Source of the DNA: a virus
Lineage: Duplodnaviria > Caudoviricetes
DNA: 54,127 bases
Virus record (IMG/VR): IMGVR_UViG_3300034155_000029
Span: 1 to 54,127 of that record
Strand: one strand, 5' to 3'
Shown: piece after piece, positions 4,875 through 52,883 of the stretch
Layout: each line of letters opens with the position of its first letter
Numbering within the stretch: the stretch's first letter is position 1
Program-made: the position numbers and the translations under genes
Notes under the pieces: model-generated
What the model was told of the DNA's origin: nothing
Databases searched by the model: none
Seen by the model: only the letters and a program-made list of their open reading frames with translations

Positions 4875-5900
4875 ATGACAAATGAAAAAGACAATTGGTA
4901 TGAAATATCAAAAACACCAGGATTAAGTGAAGAATTCATAAAGGAAAATTCTGATAAATTAGATTGGATAAATATATCATATTTTCAAAATTTAAGCGAA
5001 GATTTTATAAAGGAAAATTCTGATAAAATAAACTGGAACTGTATAGTAGAACGTCAAAATTTAAGCGAAGATTTTATTAGAGAAAATTCTGATAAAGTAA
5101 ACTGGGTTTTAATATCATGTTTTCAAAAGCTTAGTGAAGATTTTATAAAGGAAAACTTTGATAACTTAGATTGGTGTTGTATATCACAATATCAAAAACT
5201 TAGTGAAGGCTTTATTAGAGAGTTTGCTAATAAAGTAAATTGGTATAATATATCAGCGTATCAAAAATTAAGTGAAGAATTTATTAAAGAGTTTTCTGAT
5301 AAGGTTGGATGGTATAATATATCGTGTTGTCAAAAACTAAGCGAAGAATTTATTCATGAAAACTCAGATAAAGTGGCTTGGAGCTCTATATCACAATATC
5401 AAAAGTTAAGTGAAAGATTTATTAGGAAATTTTTTGATAAAGTAAATTGGGATTATATATCATATTATCAAAAATCAAGTCCTGAATTTATTAAAGAATT
5501 TAATTTAGAAATTCCAGTTTTTTGTTGGTTATATAAGGATAAAGAATTTAAGAGAAAATATATTCAAGACAATACGAAATATGAAATAATTGGAGATAAA
5601 GTAATAGCGTATAAATCTTGTAGATCAGATGGATATTCGGTATTTAATTTCCAATATCATTATGAAGTTGGTGGAAAATATGAAGCTCATGCCGATTATA
5701 ACATATATGCAGAAGCTAGTTTTGGTTTATCAGCCTGGACAAAAGAAAAAGCGTTATCATATTATAATAAAGGTAAATTATTTAAAGTAGAAATAGATTT
5801 AGAAGATATTGCTGCAATTGTACATAATGGAAATAAGATTAGGGCGAGTAAGATTAAAATATTAGAAGAGATTAATTATAAAGAGAAAAACAATGACTGA
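4875..5900 (+). CDS. Tryptophan-repeat protein (nine 23-aa repeats) with conserved ~110 aa C-terminal domain
   Basis: Repeats of xWxxISxxQKLSExFIxExSDKV, then WLYKDKE...VIAYKSCRSDGYS...FGLSAW...KIRASKIKIL shared with three paralogues; ATG 4875 preferred to TTG 4839. Confidence 0.85.
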   Translation: MTNEKDNWYEISKTPGLSEEFIKENSDKLDWINISYFQNLSEDFIKENSDKINWNCIVERQNLSEDFIRENSDKVNWVLISCFQKLSEDFIKENFDNLDWCCISQYQKLSEGFIREFANKVNWYNISAYQKLSEEFIKEFSDKVGWYNISCCQKLSEEFIHENSDKVAWSSISQYQKLSERFIRKFFDKVNWDYISYYQKSSPEFIKEFNLEIPVFCWLYKDKEFKRKYIQDNTKYEIIGDKVIAYKSCRSDGYSVFNFQYHYEVGGKYEAHADYNIYAEASFGLSAWTKEKALSYYNKGKLFKVEIDLEDIAAIVHNGNKIRASKIKILEEINYKEKNND

Positions 5901-7275
5901 AAACAAAATTGAAAATTTAGAAAAAGAGAAAATTGTGGATGATTTAACAAACCAAAAAGTTGACGAAGATAAATTAGCAGCACTTAAGGCTCGTGTAGCT
6001 AAAAAACGAGAAGAAGAAGCTGCTGCTTTACAATCTATTCCAGAAGAAATTGAGGAAAATATGCCACCACGTATTGTTGAAGAAAAATTACGAAGTATTA
6101 GATTTGGTATTATTGGTTCGGGTGCTGCTGGAAGTCGATTAGCAGAAGAATATTTTTCATTAGGATATCCTGCAGTTGTTTTTAATACCGCTAACCAAGA
6201 TTTAGAAGGTATTAAAATACCAGAACATAACAAATTATTATTAGATTTTGGATTGGGTGGATCTGGTAAAGATCTTCAAATTGGTTATGATGCTGCAGAC
6301 GCTTACAGAGCAAGTATTAATCAACTTATTCAACAACATTTAAATGATGTTCAGGTTTTTATCTTTTGTACTTCTCTTGGCGGTGGCTCAGGCGCAGGAT
6401 CTGTTGAAGTTGTTATAGATATATTATCTCAATTAGGAAAACCTGTAGTTGTTATGGCTGTTCTTCCTAAAGCTAGTGAAGATGCCGCTTTAAAACATAA
6501 TGCATGGCAAACATTAAGTAAATTAACTAAATTATTTAATGAAAATAAGATTGATAATATTATTACTATTGATAATGCTAAGATTGAATCGCTTTATAGT
6601 GATGTTGGTCCTTTTAATTTCTTCTCAGTATCTAATAAAGCTATTGTGGAACCAATTCATATTTTTAATACAATGAGTACTAGAAAAGATGAAGGTGTTA
6701 AGATTTTAGATTCAACCGAATTTGGTAAGTTATTTATTGATGGAAAAGGTTTCACTACATATGGTGAAATGACTGTAGAAAACTATGAAGATGAAATGGC
6801 TATAGCAACCGCTATTGTAGAATCTTTAAACAGTAATTTATTAGCTTCTGGTTTTGATATTCGCCAAGCAAAATATGCTGGCTTTATGTTGGTTGCACCA
6901 GAAAGTGTATGGGATAAAATTCCAAGTTCTAGTTTGGGTTTTGCTGGACATATGATTGATGATGTGTGTGATAGTCCAATTGCAATTTTCCAAGGTGTAT
7001 ATAAAGAAGAAAATGGTCAAGATTGTGTTAAAGTATATTCTATGTTCTCTGGTTTAGGTTTGCCAACTGAAAGAATTGATCAGTTGAAGGCCGAAGCTCA
7101 GAAAAAGATGGAAATTGCCAAGAGAAAAGACAGTGATAGACAAATGACAATGAAGGTTGATGTTGGTGAAGAGAATATAAATAAAGTAGATGAAATTAAG
7201 AGAAAAATTCAGGCAAAATCATCCGCGTTTAATAAATTGCACGGGTCTTCTATACAAGATAGAAGAAAGAAATAA
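5893..7275 (+). CDS. Tubulin/FtsZ-superfamily GTPase (PhuZ/TubZ/CetZ-like)
   Basis: GIIGSGAAGSRLA, GGSGKD, tubulin signature SLGGGSGAGS, IDN, charged N- and C-terminal tails. Confidence 0.9.
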   Translation: MTENKIENLEKEKIVDDLTNQKVDEDKLAALKARVAKKREEEAAALQSIPEEIEENMPPRIVEEKLRSIRFGIIGSGAAGSRLAEEYFSLGYPAVVFNTANQDLEGIKIPEHNKLLLDFGLGGSGKDLQIGYDAADAYRASINQLIQQHLNDVQVFIFCTSLGGGSGAGSVEVVIDILSQLGKPVVVMAVLPKASEDAALKHNAWQTLSKLTKLFNENKIDNIITIDNAKIESLYSDVGPFNFFSVSNKAIVEPIHIFNTMSTRKDEGVKILDSTEFGKLFIDGKGFTTYGEMTVENYEDEMAIATAIVESLNSNLLASGFDIRQAKYAGFMLVAPESVWDKIPSSSLGFAGHMIDDVCDSPIAIFQGVYKEENGQDCVKVYSMFSGLGLPTERIDQLKAEAQKKMEIAKRKDSDRQMTMKVDVGEENINKVDEIKRKIQAKSSAFNKLHGSSIQDRRKK

Positions 7276-7312
7276 TTATATTTTTTTTGGTAAAAATATA
7301 AGAAAGTAAAAA

Positions 7313-7861
7313 ATGATTAAAATTAAAGAATTGATTTATAGTTATCAAATGTTGGTTTTTGATAATTTAAGAAGTGAATCTCCTAGATATGACACAAATA
7401 CACCGAATTGTTTTGTTTCTTTGGGTAATGATAAATTTGAAACATATGGTTGTAGTATTATAAACACTCCATTATTATCGGTTAATGATTTTTGCCCAAA
7501 GAAAACTATTAATGGTTTATTTAAATCTATATTTGAACTATTATATAAAGAAGATACTGATAATAATCTTACCAAAGAAGAATTTTTACATTTTATTAAA
7601 ATGGAAGAAATTGAGTTTAAATTAAATAATTTAGAACTTGATTGCTTGGTGTGTGGTGAGAAAGCTGGTAAGTGGATTAAAGAATATATTGTTAAAGTAT
7701 TTATTCTTGAGGGTTTACCAGAAAACGCTGTATTAGCCTTACCAGAACCAGAATATACCGGAGTCTTGGCGGTTAAATGTATTGATAATGATATTGTTGA
7801 TAGTTTTGGTATAATGATTCAGGATAATAATTTTAGATCTATTGTAATTACAGATCTTTAA
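7313..7861 (+). CDS. Hypothetical protein
   Basis: 182-aa ORF in the operon-like run; no recognised motif. Confidence 0.6.
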   Translation: MIKIKELIYSYQMLVFDNLRSESPRYDTNTPNCFVSLGNDKFETYGCSIINTPLLSVNDFCPKKTINGLFKSIFELLYKEDTDNNLTKEEFLHFIKMEEIEFKLNNLELDCLVCGEKAGKWIKEYIVKVFILEGLPENAVLALPEPEYTGVLAVKCIDNDIVDSFGIMIQDNNFRSIVITDL

Positions 7862-7871
7862 AATATTAAAA

Positions 7872-8222
7872 ATGGTAATTTTTAACGAAAAATATATTCA
7901 AGATGGGTATTATTTACCAGATATTGAATATACTATCTATCAGGATAATGGAGATTACCATAATTATATAGCAACCCCAGATTATTTAGAAGAAGAATAC
8001 GAAAATCTGATTTTAAAACTGGGGTTGCTTTGTGTTTGGGAAACTTTTAATGATCTAAAACCGCATACTACAGAATATTTAATGGATAACAATCTTAAAT
8101 CTTCTAAACAGGATAGTAATATAGAAGTAGATTTGTTGAATTTTCCAAAACCATTAAAAGATCAATTAAAAGAATCCGCAGAGAGTGTTTTGAATGGAGA
8201 AAATAATTTGCCCAATTTGTAA
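7872..8222 (+). CDS. Hypothetical protein
   Basis: 116-aa acidic ORF, tightly packed. Confidence 0.55.
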   Translation: MVIFNEKYIQDGYYLPDIEYTIYQDNGDYHNYIATPDYLEEEYENLILKLGLLCVWETFNDLKPHTTEYLMDNNLKSSKQDSNIEVDLLNFPKPLKDQLKESAESVLNGENNLPNL

Positions 8223-8478
8223 TTCAGAAAATATTTCAACAGGTCGGCTTTGGTATTCATACGGTGAAGGATGTGAAGATTATATTGCTCAAGTTTCTTG
8301 TCCTAATTGTAAGAGGAAAGTTGCTGGTTGGGATATAGAGGTTTGTAAAGATGTTTTTTTAAATGGGCAAAATGGCTGCGAATGTTTCCATTGTGGAATT
8401 TTAAAATTTGAATATGGGGAAACTGATAATGTAGATACTTTGGTTGTTGAAAAAATCTCAGAAACAGTAAAAAAATGA
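8194..8478 (+). CDS. Small Zn-finger-like protein
   Basis: CPIC, CPNC and CxCxxC motifs in 94 aa. Confidence 0.55.
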   Translation: MEKIICPICNSENISTGRLWYSYGEGCEDYIAQVSCPNCKRKVAGWDIEVCKDVFLNGQNGCECFHCGILKFEYGETDNVDTLVVEKISETVKK

Positions 8479-9425
8479 ATAATATTACAGTTAAAGAAAA
8501 AATTAATGGAGGAATTCTAGGTCTTTTGGTTGGTGATGCTTTGGGGGTTCCTTATGAGTTTCGCGATGCTAAAAATATACCACCAATTGAAAATATTGAA
8601 TATATTCCTCCTGAAAATTTTCCACGGTCACATAAGAAAATCCTTCCAGGCACTTGGTCTGATGATGGCTCTCAAGCTTTGTGTTTATTAACATCTTTAT
8701 TAGATTGTAATCGTTTAGATTTAAATGATTTTGCTAAAAGATTAGTTAATTGGTATGATAACGGATATCTTGCTGTAGATGATTGTGTTTTTGATGTTGG
8801 AAACACTACTGCAACAGCTATTTTATCATTAAAGGAAGGTGTTTCTCCATATGATGCCGGTCCATTTGGATCCTATGATAATGGAAATGGTTCACTGATG
8901 AGGTGTCTTCCACTTGCTCTTTGGCATCGTGGTTCTGATAAAGAATTGGTTTTAGATGCACAGTTACAGTCTTATGTTACTCACGGCCATTTAAGATCTC
9001 AGGTTTGTTGTGCTCTTTATTGTTTATGGGCAAGATATGAATTATATTCTTTACAAAACTCATTTGAAAAAGCCGTGAAAACACTTAGAGAAATTTATAA
9101 GTTTAATTTTGAAGCTTTACAAGAATTAGATTGGTCAATACGGCCTGATGACGAGATTATAGGAACAGGATCTGGGTATGTTGTTGATAGTTTAAGATCT
9201 GCAAAAGATTCTTTACAACAAAACACATATCAAGATGTTGTTAGATACGCTATTAAGCTTGGTAAAGATACAGATACAACAGCATGTATAGCTGGAGGTA
9301 TAGCTGGTATTAAATATGGGATTAATGGAATACCCATTCGTTGGCGAGATTCTCTTCGTGGTAAAGAGATATATAAACCTATTTTAGATAATTTTAATTC
9401 ATATATTGATAATAATCCATTATAA
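8475..9425 (+). CDS. ADP-ribosylglycohydrolase (ARH/DraG family)
   Basis: GLLVGDALGVPYEF, WSDDG, GNGSLMR, TH, GKDTDTTACIAGGIAG. Confidence 0.93.
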   Translation: MNNITVKEKINGGILGLLVGDALGVPYEFRDAKNIPPIENIEYIPPENFPRSHKKILPGTWSDDGSQALCLLTSLLDCNRLDLNDFAKRLVNWYDNGYLAVDDCVFDVGNTTATAILSLKEGVSPYDAGPFGSYDNGNGSLMRCLPLALWHRGSDKELVLDAQLQSYVTHGHLRSQVCCALYCLWARYELYSLQNSFEKAVKTLREIYKFNFEALQELDWSIRPDDEIIGTGSGYVVDSLRSAKDSLQQNTYQDVVRYAIKLGKDTDTTACIAGGIAGIKYGINGIPIRWRDSLRGKEIYKPILDNFNSYIDNNPL

Positions 9426-9480
9426 TTATTATTATATCGATAGAAGATAATTCAATTCCCAATAATTAATTAGTAATAAT

Positions 9481-11001: not shown

Positions 11002-11024
11002 CAGTCAAGATATAGAAAAAACTT

Positions 11025-11630: not shown

Positions 11631-11635
11631 CTAAT

Positions 11636-11806: not shown

Positions 11807-11842
11807 ATTCATAAAACTATTTAATAGAACAAGGATAATTAC

Positions 11843-33273: not shown

Positions 33274-33663
33274 ATGCAAAATATAGCTGAAATAATTATT
33301 TCTTCTTTATCAGAAGATGCTAAATTAAAATTAGATGAATATTATATTGAAAAATATAGTAAGTTTATTAATTTTAAATTCATTTCACATTCAGAAAAAC
33401 TTAGTGAAGATTTTATTAGAAAATATTCTGATAAAGTAGATTGGCAATTAATATCAGCTTATCAAAAACTAAGTGAAGATTTTATTAGAGAATTTCAATA
33501 TAAAGTAAATTGGTGGTTTATATCTTGGAAACAAGAACTATCAGAAGAGTTTATTATAGAATATTCTGATAAGGTTTGTTGGCCATGTATATTTGGTTAT
33601 CAAAAATTGTCAGCTTCATTTAAAAGAAAATATAAAAAGATGTTGCCAAAAGATAATAGATAG
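33274..33663 (+). CDS. Short tryptophan-repeat protein (~4 repeats) lacking the C-terminal domain
   Basis: DWQLISAYQKLSEDFIREF-type repeats only. Confidence 0.8.
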   Translation: MQNIAEIIISSLSEDAKLKLDEYYIEKYSKFINFKFISHSEKLSEDFIRKYSDKVDWQLISAYQKLSEDFIREFQYKVNWWFISWKQELSEEFIIEYSDKVCWPCIFGYQKLSASFKRKYKKMLPKDNR

Positions 33664-36265: not shown

Positions 36266-37534
36266 ATGTTTGATAAAGAAACAGAAATAAAAAAAATATC
36301 AGAAATTGCAAAAAAATGTGGTGGTAAATTAATAAATACAAATTATAAAAATAATTATGATAAAATGTGTTTTGAGTGTTTTCATGGTCATGTTTTTAAA
36401 AACTCTGCAAATGCAATAAAAAATGGTCGTTGGTGTCCAAAGTGTAATAGTAATAATAGGACTGAAGAAATTTGTCGTGTATATTTTGAACATATTTTTA
36501 AATCTAAATTTTTAAAAAAACGACCAGAATGGTTAATTGGAAAAAACGGATATAGAATTGAGCTTGATGGATATTCAGAAGATAGTATGGTTGCTTTTGA
36601 ATATAACGGTCAACAACATTATAAAAAAACATTTTGGTATAATTTTGATAATGCCGAATTAGAAAGAATGAGAATAAATGAATTTATTAAAATTGAAAAA
36701 TGCAAAGAGCGTGGAATAATTTTAATTATTATTACATATAAAACAAAAATATGTAATTTAATTTCAGAAATAAAAAAACAATTAAGTATTTTTAATTATC
36801 CAAATATTGATAGTCTTGATTGGAGTGAGCCTTCTTTAAAAGAAATATATACAAGTGAAGTTTATATACAAAAACTAAGAAAAGATTTATTATTAAATGG
36901 ATTTAATTTAATTAATAATGATTATTTTGGTGAAGATTATAAATATACAGCAAAATGTAATATTTGCGGATTTGAAAGAAAAGCTAATCCGTGGAGTCTT
37001 AGAAAAAATGGTTGTAAAAGATGTTCGGGAACAGAGAAAAAAACAATAGAAGACTGTATTAAACTAGCAAGTTCTCATGGTGGGTTTTGTTTGTCAAAAG
37101 TTTATGTTAACAATTCTGAACCATTACAGTGGGAATGTAAATGTGGTTATATTTGGTTTGCAAGTTATAATAGTATACAAGCAGGAAGTTGGTGTCCAAA
37201 AGACGGTGAAGAAATTAGAAAATTATCAATAAAATCAAGTTGGGAAAATAGAAAATTAATAGAGAATATTGTTAAATTTGAAAATGCTAAAATTATAGCA
37301 TTTGAAAATGGTTTTAAACTTCTTTCTGAAAACTATATTAGTTGTGATTCGCCATTAGTATTTTTATGTAAACAAGGACATAAATGGTGTGTTGGATTGC
37401 GTTCTTTTAAAAAAGCTATAAAACAAGGTAGAGGGTGTACTCAGTGTGGTCCAAACAGTATAAAAGATACATCTTTATTTAAGAAAGAAATAAAATGTCA
37501 AAAATTAAAACTGATAAAAAATCATTTATTATAG
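36266..37534 (+). CDS. Putative homing endonuclease: Vsr/PD-(D/E)XK-like domain plus multiple Zn-ribbon repeats
   Basis: ELDGY...AFEYNGQQHY core; repeated CxxGHxW/F...WCPxC units. Confidence 0.75.
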   Translation: MFDKETEIKKISEIAKKCGGKLINTNYKNNYDKMCFECFHGHVFKNSANAIKNGRWCPKCNSNNRTEEICRVYFEHIFKSKFLKKRPEWLIGKNGYRIELDGYSEDSMVAFEYNGQQHYKKTFWYNFDNAELERMRINEFIKIEKCKERGIILIIITYKTKICNLISEIKKQLSIFNYPNIDSLDWSEPSLKEIYTSEVYIQKLRKDLLLNGFNLINNDYFGEDYKYTAKCNICGFERKANPWSLRKNGCKRCSGTEKKTIEDCIKLASSHGGFCLSKVYVNNSEPLQWECKCGYIWFASYNSIQAGSWCPKDGEEIRKLSIKSSWENRKLIENIVKFENAKIIAFENGFKLLSENYISCDSPLVFLCKQGHKWCVGLRSFKKAIKQGRGCTQCGPNSIKDTSLFKKEIKCQKLKLIKNHLL

Positions 37535-38964
37535 ATTACAATGTGCCAGTTGGTTGGGTTGTTGAGCTTAATTTTTTTGATTTAACTGGTGAAAAATCAA
37601 AGTGCAAAAATACAAGTAATAAGTTCTACCACATTGAGCTTCAATTGGGTAAAGACGGAAATTGTCAATTATATACGGAATATGGTCCAACTGGTTTTGT
37701 TCAAGCTAGAGAATTTAGATATTTTGCACAAGATAAAGCAAATGCTGAAAAAGAATTTAACAAAATTGTAAAGTCTAAAATAAAAAAAGGATATGTTGAA
37801 ATTGATATCGCTCAACGTGTTGTTGGTAGTGATGAATCTAAAAAAATTGTTAAACCTGTTCAATTAAATAATATTGAAGAAATTACAATTGAAAAAAACA
37901 ATAATAAACTTCATTGCGAAACACAAAGAATTATTAGTGAGCTTTTAGGATCTACAAATAAATTCGTAACTACAACATTAAAATGTCCCCTTGGGCAATT
38001 AACTAATAACCAAATTGACTCTGGTAGATCTAAATTACAAGAAGCTAGAAAGATAATTCAAACAGGATTGTCAGATGATAATAAAAAAATATTGTTATCA
38101 TTAACAAATGATTTTTATGGATTAATTCCTCATAATCTAGGACAAGGTGCAAGAGGGAAATTAACCAATCTTATATTGGATACTAAAGAAAAAATTGACA
38201 ATAAAGAATATGATCTTGATACTTTATTAGATGCTAAGTCTTTAGGTACAAGCTTGGATAGTAATTCAATTTGGGATCAGTATAATTCTTTAGATACAGA
38301 GTTTTCTTTTATAGATCATCAAGATCCTATTTTTGATTGGTTGAATAAATTAATTCAAGATACAAGGGCTAGTAATCATCACCATCTTGGTAAGATTATA
38401 TTGTTGAATGCTTGGACCGTTGAAAGAAAATATGAAAGGAATGTTTTTCAAAAAACAGCAGAAGATATTGCATCTCAATGTGGTAAACAAATAATTCCAC
38501 CTATAATGAAAAATTTAGTTACTACTCGTCCTGATGGTAATTCTAAATTATATCAAAATGCAAATGTTATTCCTTTATTTCATGGAACAAGAACTCAAAA
38601 TATTACTGGTATTCTTAAAAAAGGAATGCTCATTAGACCCTCTGGTGTAGTTTTGTGCGGAAACATGTATGGGTCGGCCATCTATAAATCGGCTAATTCA
38701 TCAAAAAGCATAAATTATACTAATATTAAATCATCATATTGGGCACAAGGATCTTGTGATAAAGCCTTTTTATTTGTATCTGATTGTGCATTAGGTAATC
38801 AATTTATGGCAAAATCATCAGGAAACTATACATTAAACTCTATTTCTCCTTATCATTCTGTATGGGCAAAAGGTGGAAGTAGTGGAGTAATAAATGATGA
38901 AATGATGTTGTATAAAATAGATCAACACAATATTAGATATTTAGTGGAATTTACATGCAAATAA
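37495..38964 (+). CDS. PARP-like ADP-ribosyltransferase with WGR and regulatory domains
   Basis: SNKFY...YG...KIKKGY (WGR), PLGQL...LTNDFYGLIPH (regulatory domain), LFHGT, MYGSAIY, KSINY, NDEMMLY (H-Y-E triad). Confidence 0.92.
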   Translation: MSKIKTDKKSFIIDYNVPVGWVVELNFFDLTGEKSKCKNTSNKFYHIELQLGKDGNCQLYTEYGPTGFVQAREFRYFAQDKANAEKEFNKIVKSKIKKGYVEIDIAQRVVGSDESKKIVKPVQLNNIEEITIEKNNNKLHCETQRIISELLGSTNKFVTTTLKCPLGQLTNNQIDSGRSKLQEARKIIQTGLSDDNKKILLSLTNDFYGLIPHNLGQGARGKLTNLILDTKEKIDNKEYDLDTLLDAKSLGTSLDSNSIWDQYNSLDTEFSFIDHQDPIFDWLNKLIQDTRASNHHHLGKIILLNAWTVERKYERNVFQKTAEDIASQCGKQIIPPIMKNLVTTRPDGNSKLYQNANVIPLFHGTRTQNITGILKKGMLIRPSGVVLCGNMYGSAIYKSANSSKSINYTNIKSSYWAQGSCDKAFLFVSDCALGNQFMAKSSGNYTLNSISPYHSVWAKGGSSGVINDEMMLYKIDQHNIRYLVEFTCK

Positions 38965-40532
38965 AAATAACACTAGAAAATCTAAAACAAATATTAGAAG
39001 ATAAGGGTTTTACATTATTAACAACAGAATATAAAAGAAATAGCCAAAAGCTAGATGTACTGTGTTCTAAAGGACATATTTATCACCCAACAGCAAAAAG
39101 CATAAAACGTGGTGGTTGTTCTGTTTGTTATAATGAAACATCTGCTCGTATGAAAGTAAAGGCTTGTCCAGAAAAACTACAAGAAGCAATTGATATTGCC
39201 AAATCTAAAGGAGGGGAGTGTTTATCAGATAGTTATATAAATAACAGATCTAAGTTAAAATTTAGATGTTCTAATGGACATGAATGGGAAACAACCATTA
39301 AATGTATAAAAAAAGCATGGTGCCCTATATGTTACCTTGGAGGGTCGAGTTCTGATAAATTTAAAACAGCACAAGAAACAGCTATAAAACGTGGAGGAAA
39401 ATTAATTTCTGATAATATTTCTTTTTCAGAGAAATTAATATGGGAATGTGACGCTGGTCATACTTGGAGTGCTACATATCAAAATGTAATATATAAATAT
39501 TCTTGGTGTCCATATTGTAATTCTAGTTTTTCAGAAAATATATGTAGACAATATCTAGAAGCTATCTTTGAAAAAAAGTTTATTAAAATAAGACCTACAT
39601 GGTTGGTTAATAATAGTGGAAGAGCAATGGAGCTTGATGGGTATTGTGAAGAGTTGGGTTTAGCTTTTGAACACCAAGGACTTCAGCATTATGAAACAAT
39701 AACATCTTTTTCTGAAAATATAGAAGCCGTTCAAAAAAGAGATGAAATAAAAAAAAATCTTTGTAATAAGTTTAATATAATATTACTAGAAATACCAGCA
39801 TTGTTTTATTTAACCGCTATAGATGATTTACATACAGTTATATCATCTCAATTAGACAAATCTAATATCAAATATGATTTATCCAAACTAAAACCTGTAA
39901 CACAAGTAATTGATTTAGATGTTGTAAATTTAGTTGAAAAAGAAAAAGAGCTTCAAAAAATCAAAGATATTGCCAAAAGTAAAGGCGGAGTTTGTCTATC
40001 AACCAATTATACTGGATATAATTGCAAAGTAGATTTATGTTGTGAGTACAAACATACATGGACAACAACAGCAGCTTCTATTAAAAATAACCATCATTGG
40101 TGTCCGATTTGTTCTCATAAAGGCATAATAACAATAGAAGATATGCAAAAAATTGCCACCGAACGTGGTGGTTTATGTCTTTCTAAAGAATATATAAATA
40201 ACCATTTAAAACTTGAATGGCAATGTGCTTGTGGAAACATATGGCTGGCAACATATAACAATATACAAAGTGGTAAATGGTGTCCTAAATGTGGTGTTAT
40301 CAAAAGATCAAAAGCGAAACATATTGGAATTGAAGCTTATCAATTAGCAGCGGAAAAGAAAGGTGGAAAATGTTTGTCAGCTTTTATTTCTGGCTGTTAT
40401 GATAAATTAAAGTTTGAATGTGCTTTAGGTCACAAGTGGTTTTGTAGAGCAGATCAAATGAAAAACACTAATAAATGGTGTTCTGAATGTGCAAAAATAA
40501 AAAGACAGAAAAGTAAACATGTCGATAAATAA
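38955..40532 (+). CDS. Putative homing endonuclease, paralogue of 36266-37534
   Basis: MELDGY...AFEHQGLQHY core; six GGxCLS...CxxGHxW...WCPxC-type repeats. Confidence 0.75.
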   Translation: MQIKITLENLKQILEDKGFTLLTTEYKRNSQKLDVLCSKGHIYHPTAKSIKRGGCSVCYNETSARMKVKACPEKLQEAIDIAKSKGGECLSDSYINNRSKLKFRCSNGHEWETTIKCIKKAWCPICYLGGSSSDKFKTAQETAIKRGGKLISDNISFSEKLIWECDAGHTWSATYQNVIYKYSWCPYCNSSFSENICRQYLEAIFEKKFIKIRPTWLVNNSGRAMELDGYCEELGLAFEHQGLQHYETITSFSENIEAVQKRDEIKKNLCNKFNIILLEIPALFYLTAIDDLHTVISSQLDKSNIKYDLSKLKPVTQVIDLDVVNLVEKEKELQKIKDIAKSKGGVCLSTNYTGYNCKVDLCCEYKHTWTTTAASIKNNHHWCPICSHKGIITIEDMQKIATERGGLCLSKEYINNHLKLEWQCACGNIWLATYNNIQSGKWCPKCGVIKRSKAKHIGIEAYQLAAEKKGGKCLSAFISGCYDKLKFECALGHKWFCRADQMKNTNKWCSECAKIKRQKSKHVDK

Positions 40533-42881: not shown

Positions 42882-42885
42882 AAAC
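42872..42885 (+). repeat. Exact copy of dispersed motif TCTTTGGTAAAAAC
   Basis: Spans the stop codon of 42639-42881; an inverted exact copy lies at 43040-43053. Confidence 0.8.
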
Positions 42886-42938
42886 ATAGTATTGTTAATT
42901 TTCTATCGAGGGTATGAGTATTGCCAAGTCTAATAACA

Positions 42939-44075
42939 ATGCTATTAGAAACAGATGTAAAATTAAATTTTAATGATGTTGTTATAAGGCCTAAAAGATC
43001 TATTCTAGAATCGAGATCTGAAGTATGTTTAGAAAGATCGTTTTTACCAAAGAATGGTAATATAAGTTCTAAGTTTTCAGGTATACCAATTATAGCTGCT
43101 AATATGGCAACTGGTACATTTAAAATGCTTGAGGTTTTTGCCAAGTATAAAATGTTTGTAGCTATTGCTAAATATAATTCTTCAGAATGGTTAAATCCTA
43201 AACAACAATATGATTTATCTTTAGAAGATAAAATAAATTATGGTATTTATACTATTGGTATGTCAAATGAAGAGTTATTACATTTTGATAAGTATTATCA
43301 GTATGTATATAATACAGTTCCACATTTTGCACATAGAATAAAACTATGTGTAGATATAGCAAATGGATATACTCAAAAGTTTGGTAGTTTTATCTCTAAA
43401 ATTAGGGAAGCATATCCAGCTAATTTAATAATAGCTGGAAATGTAGCAACCCCAGATATGACTCAAGAATTAATATTAGCCGGAGCAGATATAATTAAAG
43501 TAGGAGTATCTCAAGGGGGTGCATGTTTTACTAGATTAAAAACTGGAATTGGTGTACCGCAATTATCTGCGGTAATAGAATGTTCAGATGCAGCACATTC
43601 ATTTAATAATGCTTATATAATATCTGATGGAGGGTGTAGGTGTGTGGGTGATATATCTAGAGCATTTTGTGGAAATGCAGATATGGTAATGGTTGGTAGT
43701 TTATTAGCTGGGACTTATGAAAGTGATGGAGATATTATAACCAGATATTTTAAAACGGGTGAATGTAGATTAAAATATGAAGATTGTGATGGTTTAAAAG
43801 TATTTGAAGATATTATTGAGGAAAAACAATATAAATTATTCTATGGTATGAGTTCCGACTATGCACAACAAAAGCATAGTGGAGAAATTAAAAATTACAG
43901 AACATCAGAGGGTAGAGTGGAAGAGGTTGAATATAAAGGATTAGTAGATAATATAATAAAAGATATATTGGGAGGATTAAGATCTACTGGTACTTATATT
44001 GGGGCAAAGAACATTAAACATTTTGGTAAATGCGCTACATTTTTAAGAACAAATCAGGTTCATGATAGATTTTGA
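42939..44075 (+). CDS. guaC: GMP reductase
   Basis: IRPKRS, PIIAANM, CVDIANGY, AGNVAT, ACFTRLKTGIGVPQLSAV, SDGGC, FYGMSS, YRTSEG, GGLRSTGTYIGA. Confidence 0.92.
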   Translation: MLLETDVKLNFNDVVIRPKRSILESRSEVCLERSFLPKNGNISSKFSGIPIIAANMATGTFKMLEVFAKYKMFVAIAKYNSSEWLNPKQQYDLSLEDKINYGIYTIGMSNEELLHFDKYYQYVYNTVPHFAHRIKLCVDIANGYTQKFGSFISKIREAYPANLIIAGNVATPDMTQELILAGADIIKVGVSQGGACFTRLKTGIGVPQLSAVIECSDAAHSFNNAYIISDGGCRCVGDISRAFCGNADMVMVGSLLAGTYESDGDIITRYFKTGECRLKYEDCDGLKVFEDIIEEKQYKLFYGMSSDYAQQKHSGEIKNYRTSEGRVEEVEYKGLVDNIIKDILGGLRSTGTYIGAKNIKHFGKCATFLRTNQVHDRF

Positions 44076-44085
44076 AAGAAATATT

Positions 44086-44913
44086 ATGTCTAAAAAAATT
44101 AAGATCGATATAAATAATAAAGATACTGATTATTGGGATCATGTTTCTTTACGTTATGTTTTAGATGAAAAAATTATTCGTAAATATATGGATAAATTAG
44201 ATATGGATTTAATTTCTCAATATCAAAAATTAAGCGAAGAATTTATTAGGGAATTTTCTAATGAAGTAGATTGGTATTTTATATCGCAATCACAAAAACT
44301 TAGTGAGGATTTTATTAGAGAATTTTCTAATTTTGTAAATTGGATAAATATATCACAATATCAAAGGCTAAGCGAAGATTTTATTAGGGAGTTTTCTAAT
44401 AAAATAAATTGGTATTATATATCGGCTTATCAAAAGCTTAGTGAAGATTTTATTAAAGAATTCTCTAATAAAGTAGATTGGTATTGTATAGAAAATTGTC
44501 AAAAATTAAGTACAGGATTTATGAAAAAACATAAATTAAAAACTACAAATTCTTGTTGGTTATATAAAGACAAGGAATATAAGAGAGAATATATTAAAGC
44601 AAATACATCATATGAGATAATAGGAGACAAGGTAATAGCATATAAATCTTGTAGATCAGATGGATATTCATATTTTAATTTTCAATATCGTTATAAAGTA
44701 GGAAAAGAGTATGAGTGTCATGCTAACTATAATGTAGCTGAGCAAAATAGTTTTGGATTATCTGCTTGGACAAAAGAACAAGCATTAGAATATCATTCTA
44801 CAGGAAAATTATTTAAGGTAGAAATAGATTTAGAAGATGTGGCTGCTATTGTGGGTGATGGAAATAAGATAAGAGCAAGCAAAATAAAGATATTAGAAGA
44901 GATTAAAATTTAA
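44086..44913 (+). CDS. Tryptophan-repeat protein (~6 repeats) with conserved C-terminal domain
   Basis: Same architecture as 4875-5900; ATG 44086 aligns with the tandem paralogue. Confidence 0.85.
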   Translation: MSKKIKIDINNKDTDYWDHVSLRYVLDEKIIRKYMDKLDMDLISQYQKLSEEFIREFSNEVDWYFISQSQKLSEDFIREFSNFVNWINISQYQRLSEDFIREFSNKINWYYISAYQKLSEDFIKEFSNKVDWYCIENCQKLSTGFMKKHKLKTTNSCWLYKDKEYKREYIKANTSYEIIGDKVIAYKSCRSDGYSYFNFQYRYKVGKEYECHANYNVAEQNSFGLSAWTKEQALEYHSTGKLFKVEIDLEDVAAIVGDGNKIRASKIKILEEIKI

Positions 44914-44926
44914 CGAAAGAAACATT

Positions 44927-45754
44927 ATGTCTAACAAAATTACAATTGATATAAATAATAAAGATACTAATTACTGGAGTGATATTTCTGAAAAATATGT
45001 TTTGAACGAAAACATTATTCGTGATAATATTAATAAAATAAATTGGGATTATGTATCAAATAATCAAAAACTTAGTGAAGGCTTTATTAGAGAGTTTGCT
45101 AATAAAGTAAATTGGTATAATATATCAGCGTATCAAAAGCTAAGTGAAAAATTTATTAGGGAATTTTCTGATAAAGTAAACTGGTATTATATATCGCAAC
45201 AACAAAAACTAAGTGAAAAATTTATTAGGGAATTTTCTCATAAAATAGACTGGTATTGTATAGCGGTTTATCAAAAATTAAGTCAAGAATTTATCAGAGA
45301 GTGTTTTGGTGAAGTGGTGCGTTTTGATATAGGAAAGTATCAGAAATTAAGTCCAGAATTTATAAAAGAACATCATTTAAAAATTCCTAACACATGTTGG
45401 TTATATAAAGACAAAGAATATAAAAGAAGGTATTTTAAAAGATATACTAGTTATGAAATAATAGGAGATAAAGTAATTGCATATAAGTCTTGTAGATCAG
45501 ATGGGTATTCAGTATATAATTTCCAATATTATTATAAAGCCGGTAAAGAATATAAGTGTCACGCAGATTATAATATAGATAATAATAATAGTTTTGGTTT
45601 ATCTGCTTGGGAAAGAGAAAAGGCTTTTAATCATCATTCGACAGGAAAATTATTTAAGGTAGAAATTGATTTAGAAGACATAGCAGCAATTATTCATGAT
45701 GGAAATAAGATAAGGGCGAGTAAGATTAAAATATTAAAAGAAATTAAAATTTAA
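44927..45754 (+). CDS. Tryptophan-repeat protein (~6 repeats) with conserved C-terminal domain, tandem paralogue
   Basis: MSNKITIDINNKDTNYW vs MSKKIKIDINNKDTDYW; same upstream GAAAGAAAxATT. Confidence 0.85.
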   Translation: MSNKITIDINNKDTNYWSDISEKYVLNENIIRDNINKINWDYVSNNQKLSEGFIREFANKVNWYNISAYQKLSEKFIREFSDKVNWYYISQQQKLSEKFIREFSHKIDWYCIAVYQKLSQEFIRECFGEVVRFDIGKYQKLSPEFIKEHHLKIPNTCWLYKDKEYKRRYFKRYTSYEIIGDKVIAYKSCRSDGYSVYNFQYYYKAGKEYKCHADYNIDNNNSFGLSAWEREKAFNHHSTGKLFKVEIDLEDIAAIIHDGNKIRASKIKILKEIKI

Positions 45755-45763
45755 GGAATTTCT

Positions 45764-46288: not shown

Positions 46289-46289
46289 A

Positions 46290-46916
46290 ATGGAACAATT
46301 TTTTAACGAAGATGTATATAATTCAGTTTTATTAAAACTATTAAAAGATGAAACAATTTATTCATCCTGCATTAATAATATATTAATCTCTAATTCTTTA
46401 GAAGAGCAATATAAATACGAGAAAGAACAACAACAAGATTTTAATTCTATTTCCGATCAAGAATTAGAAAACCAAATTGCAAATATAGTTTATATTACAA
46501 GAATACCTAAAAGACCTAGTTTGTTTTATATGTTTTTCAATGTTAGCAATGAACGCATAGATAATGTTTTTAATAATTATAAAAGTCTTTATATAGAAAT
46601 GTGCTTTCCAGATTTTACACAAGATACATATTCATTAATTTTTAAAAACCTATTAAAATATCATCAATTTTTTGAAAATAAAACAAAATATATGGATAAG
46701 AAAATTTCAGAAGAAGAATACTATAAAGTAGTAAAAGAAAAATATAAAACTCTTAATAGTATTAGTAAAGAAGAATTAGCAAAACGTATTAATATTGTTT
46801 CGCTAATATTAAACATAAAAGATTCTAATAATCGTTTTGAAAAATTACGTTTGCTTGGCCAAATGTTTAATGTAACTGTTGATTATTTAGAACCTGTTGT
46901 TAAAACTTTAATGTAA
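46290..46916 (+). CDS. Hypothetical protein
   Basis: 208-aa ORF. Confidence 0.6.
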   Translation: MEQFFNEDVYNSVLLKLLKDETIYSSCINNILISNSLEEQYKYEKEQQQDFNSISDQELENQIANIVYITRIPKRPSLFYMFFNVSNERIDNVFNNYKSLYIEMCFPDFTQDTYSLIFKNLLKYHQFFENKTKYMDKKISEEEYYKVVKEKYKTLNSISKEELAKRINIVSLILNIKDSNNRFEKLRLLGQMFNVTVDYLEPVVKTLM

Positions 46917-46929
46917 AAAGGAAAAAAAA

Positions 46930-47796
46930 ATGAAAGCGTATTTAGATATTGTAAAAAAAGTATTAGAACAAGGTGTTATAAAACCAAACCGTACAGGTAT
47001 TGATACAATAGCAATTCCAGGAGCTATGTTTGAGCATGATATGAGTGAAGGATTTCCTTTACTTACAACCAAATCAGTTCCATTAAGATTGGTTGCTTCT
47101 GAACTTGAATTTTTCATTAAAGGATTAACTGATAAACAATGGCTAATAGATCGAAATAATCATATTTGGGATGATTGGTGTAATCCCGATATTGTTCCAT
47201 ATGGTCATGATGTTGAAACTAAATCTAAAATGAAAAAAGAACGTGATTTAGGCTGCGTATATGGGTGGATTTGGCGAAATCTTGGTGCTACTTATATAGA
47301 TTATAAAACACCTGCAGTTGGTGATGGAATAGATCAATTAAATAATGTGGTTAAAAAATTAAAATCAGATCCTTCTGATAGAAGAATGATTGTATCAGCA
47401 TGGAGTCCAAAAGATTTTCATAGTATGGCTCTTCCTCCATGTCATTATGGTTTCCAGGTTACTGTTATAGATGGTAAACTAAATCTACTTTGGAATCAGC
47501 GCAGTGTTGATATTGCACTTGGAGCCGGTTATAATATTGCAAATTATGCGTTATTATTACATCTTTTAGCAAAAGAATCTGGATTTAAAGAAGGTAAGCT
47601 TGTTGGATTTTGGGCAGACACTCATATATATGTAAATCACATTGATGGATTAAAAGAACAACTCAAGAGAGATCCTTACCCTCTACCAAGTATTAAAACA
47701 GATAATTGGAAGAGTATATTTGATTGGGAATATACAGATTCTCATGTTGAGAATTATCAACATCATCCTAAAATTAGTTTTGAGATAGCGGTTTAA
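46930..47796 (+). CDS. thyA: Thymidylate synthase
   Basis: NRTG, FPLLTTK, LGCVYG, RRMIVSAW, ALPPCH, QRSVD, DTHIYVNH. Confidence 0.95.
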   Translation: MKAYLDIVKKVLEQGVIKPNRTGIDTIAIPGAMFEHDMSEGFPLLTTKSVPLRLVASELEFFIKGLTDKQWLIDRNNHIWDDWCNPDIVPYGHDVETKSKMKKERDLGCVYGWIWRNLGATYIDYKTPAVGDGIDQLNNVVKKLKSDPSDRRMIVSAWSPKDFHSMALPPCHYGFQVTVIDGKLNLLWNQRSVDIALGAGYNIANYALLLHLLAKESGFKEGKLVGFWADTHIYVNHIDGLKEQLKRDPYPLPSIKTDNWKSIFDWEYTDSHVENYQHHPKISFEIAV

Positions 47797-47804
47797 TTGG
47801 AGTA

Positions 47805-49294: not shown

Positions 49295-49324
49295 AAACAA
49301 TTAATAATATCTTTACCAAAGAAT
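49283..49324. repeat. Inverted pair of TTTGGTAAA-motif copies between convergent folA and cca
   Basis: ATTTTTTGGTAAA-16 nt-TTTACCAAAGAAT; possible bidirectional terminator or double binding site. Confidence 0.6.
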
Positions 49325-49328
49325 CTAA

Positions 49329-50924: not shown

Positions 50925-50940
50925 ATAAAAATAAGGAAAT

Positions 50941-51213
50941 ATGCCACAAAAAGCACCAGTAAAAAAAGAAAAAGTATTAGAAAAACCAAAAATAAAAAAG
51001 CGCTATATGTTATCGGTCGATGGGATAGCTCCTATCAAGGTTCAATTTGAAACATGGGCTTTTGATGAACATGAAGCATTGGAACAATTTAAAAATCCAA
51101 GATTAATGAATTTAGTAAATCGTCCAGATATTGATTTGTCTAGATTGAAACTAAAAAAAATTACAGTTAAAGATATTTTCACACAATTAATTAAGTTAAC
51201 CAAATCATTTTAA
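50941..51213 (+). CDS. Hypothetical basic protein
   Basis: 90 aa, AAGGA upstream. Confidence 0.55.
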   Translation: MPQKAPVKKEKVLEKPKIKKRYMLSVDGIAPIKVQFETWAFDEHEALEQFKNPRLMNLVNRPDIDLSRLKLKKITVKDIFTQLIKLTKSF

Positions 51214-51232
51214 AGAAAGAAAAACAATTACA

Positions 51233-51913
51233 ATGTCAATAGAGTTTTATATTACGGACGTAGAGAGTTTGGGGTTGGCGGTAGATATTCATGAGATTAA
51301 TCAAATTTCAGTATTAAGGGTTTCTGATCAGAAACAGTTTACGGCAAATATTAAAGTAAAGCATCCTGAAAGATTTAGTCCGCAAGCATTAGAGATACAA
51401 GGAATTACGCCGTCAGATTTATTAGTTGGCATTCCTATAGAAGAAACTGTTGAGGGTTATGAAAATTTCTTAAAAGAAGATGGAAAAACCAAGGCACACA
51501 GGTGTATGATAGCTCACAATGCACCGTTTGATAGAAAGTTTATACACCGAGCTTGGGAAAATGTCAATAGAGATTTGTCAGCTGATCTTTGGTTATGTAC
51601 AATGTCATTAGCTAAACGCTATGTTGCCAAAATGGGTGGAGATAAGTTAGCGCAATCTCAAATTAAGTTGGGTGTAGAAGGAATTAAAAAAGATAAGAAT
51701 GGATCGCTTAAACCAAAGTTTGGTCTTAATAATTTATTGGCTGGTTTAGAATTAAAATCTAAAAATGGAGCACATCAAGCTGAGGTAGATGTTCAAAACA
51801 CATTAGTATTATTTAATTGGTTAATGGAAACAAAGTTAGAATATGTTTCTTTAATTGAACGCATTCCACACAAAGAAATTGTTGTTCCACAATTAGATGT
51901 ATCTGATTTTTAA
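51233..51913 (+). CDS. DEDDh 3'-5' exonuclease (second paralogue)
   Basis: TDVESLG, AHNAPFD, LCT, AHQAEVD. Confidence 0.88.
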   Translation: MSIEFYITDVESLGLAVDIHEINQISVLRVSDQKQFTANIKVKHPERFSPQALEIQGITPSDLLVGIPIEETVEGYENFLKEDGKTKAHRCMIAHNAPFDRKFIHRAWENVNRDLSADLWLCTMSLAKRYVAKMGGDKLAQSQIKLGVEGIKKDKNGSLKPKFGLNNLLAGLELKSKNGAHQAEVDVQNTLVLFNWLMETKLEYVSLIERIPHKEIVVPQLDVSDF

Positions 51914-51924
51914 AAAGGAGTATT

Positions 51925-52059
51925 ATGTTAAATTTAATACAAGAAAAACTATTAGAAGAAGTTAAGCAAACATTGGAAGAAGAAATTGAAAACAAAAGAA
52001 AAGATAGAAATAAAAGAAAAGCAGCAAAACGTAAGGGTAAAAAATTGTTGACAAAATAG
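51925..52059 (+). CDS. Small 44-aa protein with basic C-terminus (below ORF-track cut-off)
   Basis: AAGGAG RBS; MLNLIQEKLLEEVK...KRKAAKRKGKKLLTK*. Confidence 0.55.
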   Translation: MLNLIQEKLLEEVKQTLEEEIENKRKDRNKRKAAKRKGKKLLTK

Positions 52060-52076
52060 ATGTAACATGTTATAAA
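52048..52076 (+). promoter_or_regulatory. Sigma70-type promoter, very short leader
   Basis: TTGACA-17 bp-TATAAA with extended TG; 9 nt between the -10 box and ATG 52086. Confidence 0.6.
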
Positions 52077-52085
52077 AAAAAACAA

Positions 52086-52883
52086 ATGACCACAAAAATA
52101 AATTGGAGTAAAGTTTCTGCTACACAAGGTTTAGGCGAAACCTTTATAAGGGAAAATTCAGACAAAGTAGACTGGTATTATATATCAAAAATCCAAAGGC
52201 TTCATGAAGAATTTATTAAAGATTTTTCTGATAAAGTAGATTGGGCAAACATATCATATTATCAAAAACTAAGTGAAAAATTTATTAGAAAAAATCACGA
52301 TAAAGTAGACTGGATGTTGATATCGGCGTTTCAAAAACTTAGTGAGGAGTTTATTAGAGAATTTTCTGATAAAGTAGATTGGGCAAACATATCAAGTTAT
52401 CAAAAACTAAGCGAAAATTTTATTAGAGAATTTTCTAATAAAGTATATTGGGATTTTATATCTTTATATCAAAAATTAAGTCCGAAATTTATTACAGAAT
52501 ATAATTCAGAAATATCAGAAGAAAATTGGTTATATAAAGATAAAGAATATAAAAGAAAATACATTCAAGAATATACAAAATATGATATTATTGGAGATAA
52601 AGTAATAGCATATAAGACATGTAGATCTGATGGATATTCTGCGTTTAATTTCCAATATCATTATGAAGTTGGGGGAGAATATGAATGTCATGCTAACCAT
52701 AATATAAATCATAAAGATAGTTTTGGATTATCTGCATGGACACAAGAAGAAGCTTTAGATTATTATCCTGATGGAAAATTGTTTAAAGTAGAGATTGATT
52801 TGGAAGACATTGCTGCGGTTGTATATGAAGGAAATAAAATCAGGGCGAGCAAAATTAAAATATTAGAAGAGGTTTCAAACTAA
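52086..52883 (+). CDS. Tryptophan-repeat protein (6 repeats) with conserved C-terminal domain
   Basis: Same architecture as 4875-5900. Confidence 0.85.
   Translation: MTTKINWSKVSATQGLGETFIRENSDKVDWYYISKIQRLHEEFIKDFSDKVDWANISYYQKLSEKFIRKNHDKVDWMLISAFQKLSEEFIREFSDKVDWANISSYQKLSENFIREFSNKVYWDFISLYQKLSPKFITEYNSEISEENWLYKDKEYKRKYIQEYTKYDIIGDKVIAYKTCRSDGYSAFNFQYHYEVGGEYECHANHNINHKDSFGLSAWTQEEALDYYPDGKLFKVEIDLEDIAAVVYEGNKIRASKIKILEEVSN

Follow-up and report, generated by a model that had tools for sequence, protein, structure and literature searches.

A multi-copy family of hypervariable tryptophan-repeat proteins carrying a RIIB-type C-terminal domain in an uncultivated jumbo-phage-like virus

What are genes doing in a phage genome when their products consist largely of short, nearly identical tryptophan repeats differing from one another at only a few positions, and what is the domain that most of them carry behind these repeats? 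The question is raised by a DNA stretch of 54,127 bases (the window), which is the whole of the virus record IMGVR_UViG_3300034155_000029 from IMG/VR (Duplodnaviria; Caudoviricetes), and which includes five such genes. A preliminary description of the window, made from its sequence alone, proposed that the genes encode a variable binder fused to a modifying domain with a possible ADP-ribosyltransferase (ART)-like fold. Here we observe that four of the five proteins combine the repeats with a C-terminal domain homologous to that of the bacteriophage T4 protein RIIB, that variability is concentrated at particular positions of the repeat, and that the remainder of the repeat and the C-terminal domain are under purifying selection. 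We consider it somewhat more probable than its negation that the family has expanded specifically in this lineage, its members being re-targetable binders which carry a constant RIIB-type module and act in phage-host conflict.

The five genes, referred to below as genes A to E, are as follows.

4875..5900, + strand: gene A (341 amino acids), nine Trp-repeat units (4896-5516) and a RIIB-C/DUF7666 domain (5526-5897)
33274..33663, + strand: gene B (129 amino acids, repeat-only), four units (33373-33648) with one degenerate unit before them
44086..44913, + strand: gene C (275 amino acids), six units (44134-44547) and a RIIB-C/DUF7666 domain (44557-44910)
44927..45754, + strand: gene D (275 amino acids), six units (44975-45388) and a RIIB-C/DUF7666 domain (45398-45751)
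52086..52883, + strand: gene E (265 amino acids), six units (52104-52517) and a RIIB-C/DUF7666 domain (52527-52880); the copy used for modelling

Units were obtained by slicing each protein every 23 residues from its first Trp. The 23-residue register is perfect and free of indels over the 9, 4, 6, 6 and 6 units of genes A to E, with the last two units of gene D lacking the Trp or being degenerate. A six-frame scan of the window with a hidden Markov model (HMM) of the unit (i-E<0.001) identified units in precisely these five open reading frames (ORFs) and none elsewhere. The positions and approximate copy numbers first proposed for the five genes were thereby borne out. The ORF listing suggests earlier TTG or ATG starts for genes A and C, and alignment of the paralogues favours the ATG at the coordinates listed above. 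All five proteins match the tryptophan-repeat family phrog_3532, with E values of 3.1e-97 (A), 2.8e-32 (B), 1.2e-43 (C), 6.5e-46 (D) and 1.3e-50 (E), and by this measure (3e-97 to 3e-32) the repeat pattern is far above chance expectation. Gene B begins directly at the end of an RNase T-like exonuclease gene, and its product matched no Pfam family and showed no match to the C-terminal domain. Genes C and D lie in tandem, downstream of an IMPDH/GMP-reductase-like gene.

The unit has a fixed scaffold and a small number of highly variable positions. Among the 31 units of the window, W1, I4, S5, Q8, L10, S11, E12, F14 and I15 have entropies of only 0.2-1.1 bits, positions 13, 19, 20 and 23 are moderately variable (2.1-2.5 bits), and positions 2, 3, 6 and 7 reach 3.23, 2.99, 3.39 and 2.59 bits. 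The two residue pairs flanking the central Ile-Ser had been described as varying freely, with nine pairs quoted as examples. All nine are present among the units, and positions 2, 3 and 6 are indeed hypervariable, but the freedom of position 7 was overstated, since Tyr occupies it in 15 of the 31 units. The contrast persists in a larger set of 87 units, obtained by adding a related record (G001; 67,775 bases, 16% complete), the only one found with a single-protein query: positions 2, 3 and 6 then reach 3.49, 3.29 and 3.66 bits with 15-19 residue types each, while most scaffold positions remain at 0.2-1.5 bits. In a cultured virus, Bacillus phage BpSp, where five tandem genes (gp123-127) provide 24 units, variability likewise peaks at these three positions.

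A model of full-length gene E, built from a 44-sequence alignment, has a predicted local distance difference test score (pLDDT) of 96.2 and a predicted template modelling score (pTM) of 0.90. Every unit in it forms two helices, helix A at unit positions 1-7 (W-x-x-I-S-x-x) and helix B at positions 12-17 (E-x-F-I-R-E). On helix geometry, positions 2, 3, 6 and 7 (i, i+1, i+4 and i+5) would share one face of helix A, opposite W1, I4, S5 and Q8. The question put by the preliminary description, whether the variable residues line one face, is therefore answered positively by the helix geometry of the model, with their exposure deduced from periodicity rather than from solvent accessibility. The array is read as a recognition module because the hypervariable positions form a stripe along the solenoid. 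The predicted solenoid appears to have no close solved analogue: a Foldseek search of the Protein Data Bank (PDB) with the full-length model returned nothing at E<=1e-3, a sequence search of the PDB with gene E gave nothing below E 0.4, and the best rows in comparisons with solved structures, at Z 4.0-4.6, were ankyrin, DARPin, tankyrase-ARC and TOG arrays. The family profile, searched against PDB sequences, retrieved only engineered OspA chains with a 23-residue repeat (6kk9, 2oy7), which we set aside as compositional.

Tyr and Asn make up 18% and 11% of the residues at positions 2, 3 and 6, with a further ~24% contributed by Lys, Glu, Gln, Trp and Met, and the net charge of the repeat modules ranges from -12 to +2. 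Such a surface, Tyr-rich, partly hydrophobic and neutral to acidic, more likely suits a protein target than a nucleic acid, and on the same grounds a TALE- or PPR-like nucleic-acid code was judged less likely.

The C-terminal domain of genes A, C, D and E is a single domain of 118 residues, as the preliminary description had recognized in outline, gene E sharing 79% identity in this region with gene A, and 76 and 70% with the other two copies. All four align end to end with the Pfam model DUF7666 (PF24703). Taken alone, the domains score 32.4 (E), 29.5 (C), 29.3 (A) and 26.4 bits (D) with a cut-off of 27, three of the four lying above it and D 0.6 bits below; whole-protein scores are 30.3 (E), 25.9 (A), 25.7 and 20.5 bits. 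A DNA-level scan of the window for DUF7666 listed three of the four copies, that of gene E being missing from the list. The nearest ESM Atlas cluster is also DUF7666 (viral, score 0.93). The window proteins nevertheless belong to a divergent branch, as only 24 of 114 members of the C-domain family reach DUF7666 at E<=0.01. No DUF7666 match was found in 14 control cellular genomes.

Several lines of evidence connect this domain to RIIB. Gene C matches phrog_11221, annotated 'RIIB lysis inhibitor', at E 3.3e-4, as do 42 of the 114 family members (best E 2.2e-12), and three other RIIB PHROGs are matched by 14, 9 and 4 members. Comparison of the family profile with T4 RIIB using hhalign gave a probability of 95.6% and an E value of 1.1e-8 over 101 columns, covering RIIB residues 203-310 of 312. 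With a model of the gene E domain (pLDDT 96.1), a search of BFVD returned 37 matches at E<=1e-3, led by RIIB proteins from many phages with template modelling (TM) scores of 0.74-0.84, root-mean-square deviations (rmsd) of 1.3-3.0 A and E values of 1e-8 to 1e-6; weaker matches were DUF7666 proteins named as ankyrin-repeat (Megavirus and moumouvirus, E 6e-4 to 5e-3) and pentapeptide proteins. By profile and predicted structure, the domain is thus homologous to the C-terminal domain of T4 RIIB, an identity missed by the preliminary description. The link is not evident from Pfam alone, because T4 RIIB has no match to the DUF7666 model at E<=1; its Pfam scan shows only weak N-terminal helix-turn-helix (HTH) matches.

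The pairing of repeats and domain extends well beyond the window. An exhaustive HMMER search of 1.84 billion representatives yielded 234 C-domain relatives at E<=1e-3. Among the 150 best representative homologues, 117 have one or more Trp units upstream of the domain, and 25 of the 33 without units are no longer than 182 residues. Starting from the repeats, which match 1071 proteins (90% clustering) at E<=1e-5, 92 of 102 further proteins reached in this way carry the domain. Pfam scans of 16 atypical homologues (long or repeat-less), and of eight whose C-terminus is unmatched by the C-domain HMM, revealed no other domain above cut-off. Many homologues carry a precomputed PF08004 label which our Pfam scans did not reproduce; it is left unexplained and is probably a sub-threshold repeat match.

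In the 114 sequences (gene E domain numbering) the most conserved residues are W1 (97%), K9 (99%), A28 (94%), Y29 (96%), K30 (96%), S38 (93%), Y46 (95%), D57 (88%, with Asp or Asn in 100%), S65 (94%), F66 (93%), G67 (100%), D94 (90%), K104 (84%) and R106 (100%). The T4 RIIB alignment retains the Lys, Gly, Asp, Lys and Arg of this set. In addition, columns 56, 58 and 107 contain Cys in 68%, 55% and 71% of homologues, and Ala, His/Tyr and Ala in the window copies (gene E: 52692-52700 and 52845-52847). The three columns covary, and may mark a metal site or disulfide lost in the window lineage.

Is the domain ART-like? The preliminary description suggested so from the order of a strand with the YK motif, a strand with GLS, a helix with A..Y and a strand with LFKVEI, and the secondary structure of the pLDDT-96 model agrees with this order (strands at 25-32, 68-71 and 84-91, helix at 73-79). 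Foldseek comparison of the domain model with the PDB gave no match at E<=1e-3, the weak rows being largely CNFy domain 4, PARP14/15/16/10 and Arr. VIA-align, run against 48,161 representative chains, produced 89 matches at Z>=2 and five at Z>=5. The best were BC2332 (2aua; Z 6.5, 82 residues aligned, rmsd 3.3), Arr (9iaf; Z 6.3, 79 residues) and a Tpt1-like protein with ADP-ribose (9ld3; Z 6.2, 79 residues), followed by PARP13 (Z 5.3) and diphtheria toxin (Z 5.1); in the top rows 79-82 residues are superposed with an rmsd of 3.1-3.3 A. Of the 50 VIA-align matches listed, at least 32 are of ART type by title (PARPs, ADP-ribosylating toxins, Arr, DarT and Tpt1), and most of the others (BC2332, CNFy, Rhs toxins, Scabin, CARDS and MbcT) are ART-fold proteins. 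When the Foldseek candidates were structurally re-compared, all 50 rows listed were ART-fold, most of them by title and three (BC2332, TreX and CNFy) by what is otherwise known of these proteins. BC2332 is described as diphtheria-toxin-like in the available part of its report (PMC3024214). The homogeneity of these lists is real evidence for ART likeness in the modelled fold, although the scores themselves are middling. At the sequence level, the domain shares 11-13% identity with minimal ART folds and matched no PDB chain.

Conservation of the active site is less consistent with a classical enzyme. The domain lacks a conserved H-Y-E or R-S-E triad, and in column frequencies over the 114 sequences no His or Glu anywhere in it reaches 90%. 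From the aligned ranges and the catalytic-residue numbering of the known enzymes, K30 would lie on the first long strand, where ARTs have His or Arg, and D94 may correspond to the Asp of Arr, while the aligned ranges of PARP10 and PARP14 would place the PARP-type catalytic Glu near the basic K104 and R106. One might speculate that such a basic, phosphate-friendly site is nearer to Tpt1-type than to toxin-type chemistry. The fold search proposed in the preliminary description has thus returned lists made up almost wholly of ART-fold proteins for the C-terminal domain, at weak scores, and no close analogue for the repeats; ART likeness gains from it, and a modifying activity is left without a canonical triad. 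A wider proposal would be that DUF7666/RIIB-C is an unrecognised and highly derived ART branch, nearest to Arr, Tpt1 and BC2332, with a Lys/Asp/Arg site for the use of NAD+ or for binding of ADP-ribose or phospho-ligands. It would serve phages as a constant warhead behind exchangeable targeting modules, namely the HTH of T4 RIIB, the ankyrin repeats of giant-virus proteins and the hypervariable Trp repeats of jumbo phages. We regard this proposal as unlikely.

What the domain does could be explained in two other ways, to which we give the same low weight. One is that it is an active NAD+-dependent ADP-ribosyltransferase, aimed by the repeats at different substrates, with the first and last of the following window genes serving as erasers.

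8475..9425, + strand: ADP-ribosylglycohydrolase gene (Pfam ADP_ribosyl_GH E 5.6e-64)
37495..38964, + strand: PARP-like gene, a canonical ART-superfamily member (Pfam PARP E 5.4e-18, PARP_reg E 2.6e-13, WGR E 1e-10)
52886..53389, + strand: NADAR-domain gene (Pfam NADAR E 1.8e-32), 2 nt after gene E

The presence of these three ADP-ribose-related genes (PARP-like with WGR and regulatory domains, ADP-ribosylglycohydrolase and NADAR) in one window is in favour of this explanation, as is the position of NADAR, whose ORF begins at 52886, directly behind the stop of gene E at 52883, just as first noted. So are the ART-fold proteins filling the search lists, the fact that the best matches are the smallest ARTs (Arr, BC2332 and Tpt1-like), and the many conserved polar residues, such as a ligand pocket typically has (K30, S38, Y46, D57, S65, G67, D94, K104 and R106). 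RIIB is also toxic when expressed alone, according to the accessible part of one study (bioRxiv 10.1101/2023.05.28.542683). Against it stand the missing triads, the probable placing of the usual catalytic Glu near basic residues (a mapping from aligned ranges, not a residue-level alignment), and the lack of any Foldseek PDB match at E<=1e-3 together with Z values of at most 6.5. The NADAR linkage, moreover, is absent in the sole relative examined (G001, n=1), where ~4.4 kb separate the NADAR homologue (7772-8179) from the closest gene of the family. Inactive ART folds also exist, and two of them, the TASOR pseudo-PARP domain and PARP13, are among the matches. Active ADP-ribosylation is, in our estimation, unlikely.

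The other explanation, which we hold to be just as unlikely, is that the proteins are non-enzymatic adaptors, the C-terminal domain docking one common partner (perhaps the membrane, or an ATPase of the RIIA type) and the repeats recruiting different clients. The absence of canonical catalytic residues would be expected of an adaptor. Moreover, the domain stays constant while the modules upstream of it change (Trp repeats, ankyrin, pentapeptide or HTH), and the pTM of 0.90 suggests a rigid two-module body. T4 RIIB itself is required, with RIIA, against RexAB, as stated in the accessible parts of two reports (bioRxiv 10.1101/2023.05.28.542683; PMC13716836). Among the window ORFs scanned with Pfam and PHROG there is no RIIA-annotated match, which at ~12% of the genome is uninformative. 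The point that tells more against docking is that an invariant Gly and Arg, with conserved Lys, Asp, Ser and Tyr, would be more typical of a small-ligand pocket than of a flat interface.

The idea of re-targetable binders depends on how the variable positions evolve. From the 87 units we took 15 mutual-nearest pairs, chosen on the 20 codons other than 2, 3 and 6. Amino-acid identity in these pairs is 4% at positions 2, 3 and 6 and 84% at the other 20. The proportion of non-synonymous differences (pN) is 0.62 at the three positions and 0.06 in the scaffold, with synonymous proportions (pS) of 0.41 and 0.22, and the ratio of non-synonymous to synonymous rates (dN/dS) is 2.2 (bootstrap median 2.3, 95% interval 1.02-5.25) compared with 0.24 in the scaffold. 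When genes were instead paired by C-domain similarity and their units matched by position, the ratio was 1.3-1.6 at positions 2, 3 and 6 and 0.2 in the scaffold. For the C-terminal domain, mean pN is 0.18 and mean pS 0.48, pN being inflated by one indel-bearing copy. The variable positions thus evolve at or above the neutral rate, and the scaffold and the C-terminal domain are under purifying selection. The per-position test suggested by the preliminary description therefore gives a ratio above 1 in nearest pairs, from estimates which are near saturation and with a within-class test that falls short of significance.

If the three positions were simply unconstrained surface sites in neutral drift, the variability would have no function. 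The gene-level ratios of 1.3-1.6, close to 1 and near saturation, would permit this, as would the within-class Fisher test (p=0.08). However, other exposed positions (13 on helix B, 16 and 17) are far less variable, at 1.1-2.6 bits; the nearest pairs differ almost completely at the three positions and hardly elsewhere, with a bootstrap interval for the ratio which excludes 1; the enrichment in Tyr and Asn would not be predicted by neutral drift in AT-rich DNA alone; and the same positions vary most in the distant phage BpSp. We therefore consider drift without function very improbable. Targeted mutagenesis of the repeats, for instance by a diversity-generating retroelement (DGR), would fit variation limited to a few codons within otherwise near-identical units, but was rejected as extremely improbable, as Pfam found no reverse transcriptase domain in the 46 window ORFs of at least 100 residues, the ~24% Lys, Glu, Gln, Trp and Met at the variable positions are not produced by adenine mutagenesis of AAY codons, which DGRs typically use, and the variation extends across every unit of many paralogues rather than occupying one C-terminal variable region.

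We return, then, to an expansion of binders with a constant RIIB-type module. The first module would be an alpha-solenoid of 4-9 units of 23 residues, with a fixed Trp/Ile/Ser/Gln/Leu/Phe/Ile scaffold and, along its length, a stripe of diversified surface formed by positions 2, 3, 6 and partly 7. The second, present in four of the five genes, would be the constant 118-residue domain, by prediction a minimal ART-like split beta-sheet fold. The repeats of each paralogue would recognise a protein of their own, from the host or a competitor, and the same RIIB-type output domain would thereby be delivered to it, in a role in phage-host conflict comparable to that of RIIB against RexAB. We infer that the targets of the variable face are proteins of host defence or physiology, and that the ART-like cleft of the model may bind NAD+ or another phospho-ligand. 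In this form, the initial proposal of a variable binder with a constant modifying module keeps its binder part, through the one-face variability and the contrast in selection, and the enzymatic modification becomes putative, lacking a canonical triad.

A number of points weigh against this interpretation. The estimates of dN/dS are near saturation, the class formed by positions 2, 3 and 6 has few synonymous sites (S=20), the Fisher test of non-synonymous against synonymous change within it is not significant, and scaffold dS is lowered by the selection of nearest pairs. That the variable residues are exposed is deduced from helix periodicity in the model and not from solvent accessibility. Similarity to ARTs is weak (Z<=6.5), and according to the note supplied with the tool a Z below 8 can reflect a common arrangement. 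The analogy with RIIB would carry over a phenotype and not a mechanism, and a 2021 review by Iyer et al. treats RIIB, in the part of the text available, as a transcription factor (PMC7824862). Finally, the window covers only ~12% of the phage genome.

The remainder of the window has a GC content of 26-35% and nearly all of its ORFs on the + strand. Pfam and PHROG scans revealed a jumbo-phage-like gene content, including a TubZ/PhuZ-like tubulin, a DnaB-like helicase, a DnaC-like loader and a sigma-70 region 2 protein, together with NrdD and its activase, ThyA, DHFR, a CCA-adding enzyme, and GIY-YIG and HNH homing endonucleases; some proteins contain head-decoration-like and tail-like segments. 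These features suggest that the window is a fragment of a very large, jumbo-phage-like uncultivated virus. It appears to have no close DNA relative among 50,697 phage records, against which megablast with 8.7 kb of the window gave no match, and scans for tRNAs and Rfam families were empty. The record is linear, with an estimated completeness of 12%. The tubulin gene (5893-7275) overlaps the stop of gene A by 8 nt. The PARP-like gene, with its eukaryote-style WGR, PARP regulatory and catalytic domains, has HNH/homing-endonuclease-like ORFs on both sides (36266-37534 and 38955-40532). A partial GDP-mannose-dehydratase ORF (3-1052) includes a LAGLIDADG_3 segment at residues 80-147, which suggests an intein, and the next ORF (1049-3820; 923 residues) has an epimerase domain at residues 4-319 only, leaving ~600 residues without a Pfam match.

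Signs of duplication and turnover are also visible within the family. About 25 nt before the start codons are conserved among many paralogues (window ~4850-4874, 44061-44085 and 44902-44926, and also in G001), a stretch which translates as ..YQRKIYIM or ..ERNIM. This suggests that a leader or translation-initiation region, with a GAAAGAAA-like motif, was common to the paralogues and was copied along in the duplications. Of the eight C-domain copies in the related record, one belongs to a gene which a frameshift divides between an ORF with repeats only and an ORF with both repeats and domain, and another contains an in-frame TAA (L004 4358-5327; G001 46798-47148). To judge from these reading frames, such lesions would indicate either turnover and pseudogenisation within the expansion or assembly errors.

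The Trp-repeat family, DUF7666 and RIIB are all already known by name. RIIB ranks among the oldest genes of molecular genetics. In the literature outside subscription journals and closed supplements, we found no paper on DUF7666, no analysis of phage Trp repeats beyond their naming and, in the parts of these sources that were available, no link between RIIB and the ART fold. The present data show the RIIB C-terminal domain recurring as a constant module behind different targeting arrays and, in these jumbo phages, following repeats in which diversification at the surface positions equals or exceeds the neutral rate; the fold predicted for the domain is suggestive of the ART superfamily, whose members use NAD+. 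Should the domain prove to be a derived ART branch, the rII system would gain a biochemical handle and the Trp-repeat paralogues would constitute a natural library of re-targeted effectors under diversifying selection. The repeat itself, compact, very regular and with three defined variable positions per unit, may be of interest as a natural binder scaffold.

Among known systems, the closest to the repeat module are the 'tryptophan repeat' phages of phrog_3532, which have the same 23-residue unit with the scaffold W..IS..QKLSE.FI. Searching phage records with the repeats (tblastn) gave many matching places in jumbo phages of Firmicutes, with 39 in Bacillus phage BpSp, 35 in Listeria phage LPJP1, 21 in Bacillus phage G and others in AgentSmith and Clostridium phage c-st; identity to the repeat proteins of LPJP1, G, BpSp and AgentSmith is 46.9-50.3%. 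The C-terminal domain gave no match at E<=0.01 in the same 50,697 records. BpSp annotation reads 'tryptophan repeat gene family protein', and the available part of the phage G paper gives the family as of unknown function (PMC12484599). For the putative connection with entomopoxviruses made in the preliminary description, the basis is the shared annotation label in the BpSp and phage G records and papers. The five BpSp proteins differ from those of the window in being short (142-204 residues) and repeat-only, with a short C-terminal tail of their own and no DUF7666. This tail, ..NPN...TEKIKTLFKL.E[IVL], is common to all five and stands where DUF7666 would be. Since repeat-only is the normal form in this cultured phage, the suggestion that the repeat-only gene B is a decoy or a module reservoir finds no support, and by its sequence gene B looks like an ordinary member of the same class.

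For the C-terminal domain, the closest known proteins are T4 RIIB and the RIIB-like proteins of T4-like, N4-like and other phages. From the classical r1589 deletion it is reported that the B cistron can dispense with its N-terminal part; its function would then lie in the C-terminal part. It is this part that the window proteins have in common with T4 RIIB, with the shared motifs IAYK/YAWK, RS[DN], SFGLS/SRGLH, D[IV] and K[IM]R. In T4 RIIB the place of the Trp repeats is taken by an N-terminal region with a weak HTH signal and by a middle region, and the protein is single-copy and paired with rIIA, whereas the family has four copies in 54 kb of the window and eight in 68 kb of the related record. 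With Trp repeats instead of the RIIB N-terminus over their N-terminal two-thirds, and several copies per genome fragment, the window proteins are not RIIB orthologues. In the accessible parts of two reports, RIIB is also sufficient to trigger a bacterial gasdermin system, by a mechanism given as unknown (bioRxiv 10.1101/2023.05.28.542683; PMC13716836). Arr, the NAD+ lobe of Tpt1/KptA and BC2332 are the best solved matches over nearly the whole C-terminal domain, but their catalytic residues are not conserved in it. In overall design, the window genes resemble tankyrase (ankyrin repeats and PARP) and the giant-virus proteins with ankyrin repeats and DUF7666, all of which place helical repeats N-terminal to an ART-like domain. 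The Trp repeat has 23 residues and the ankyrin repeat 33, and the resemblance to tankyrase is one of design by analogy rather than of shown homology.

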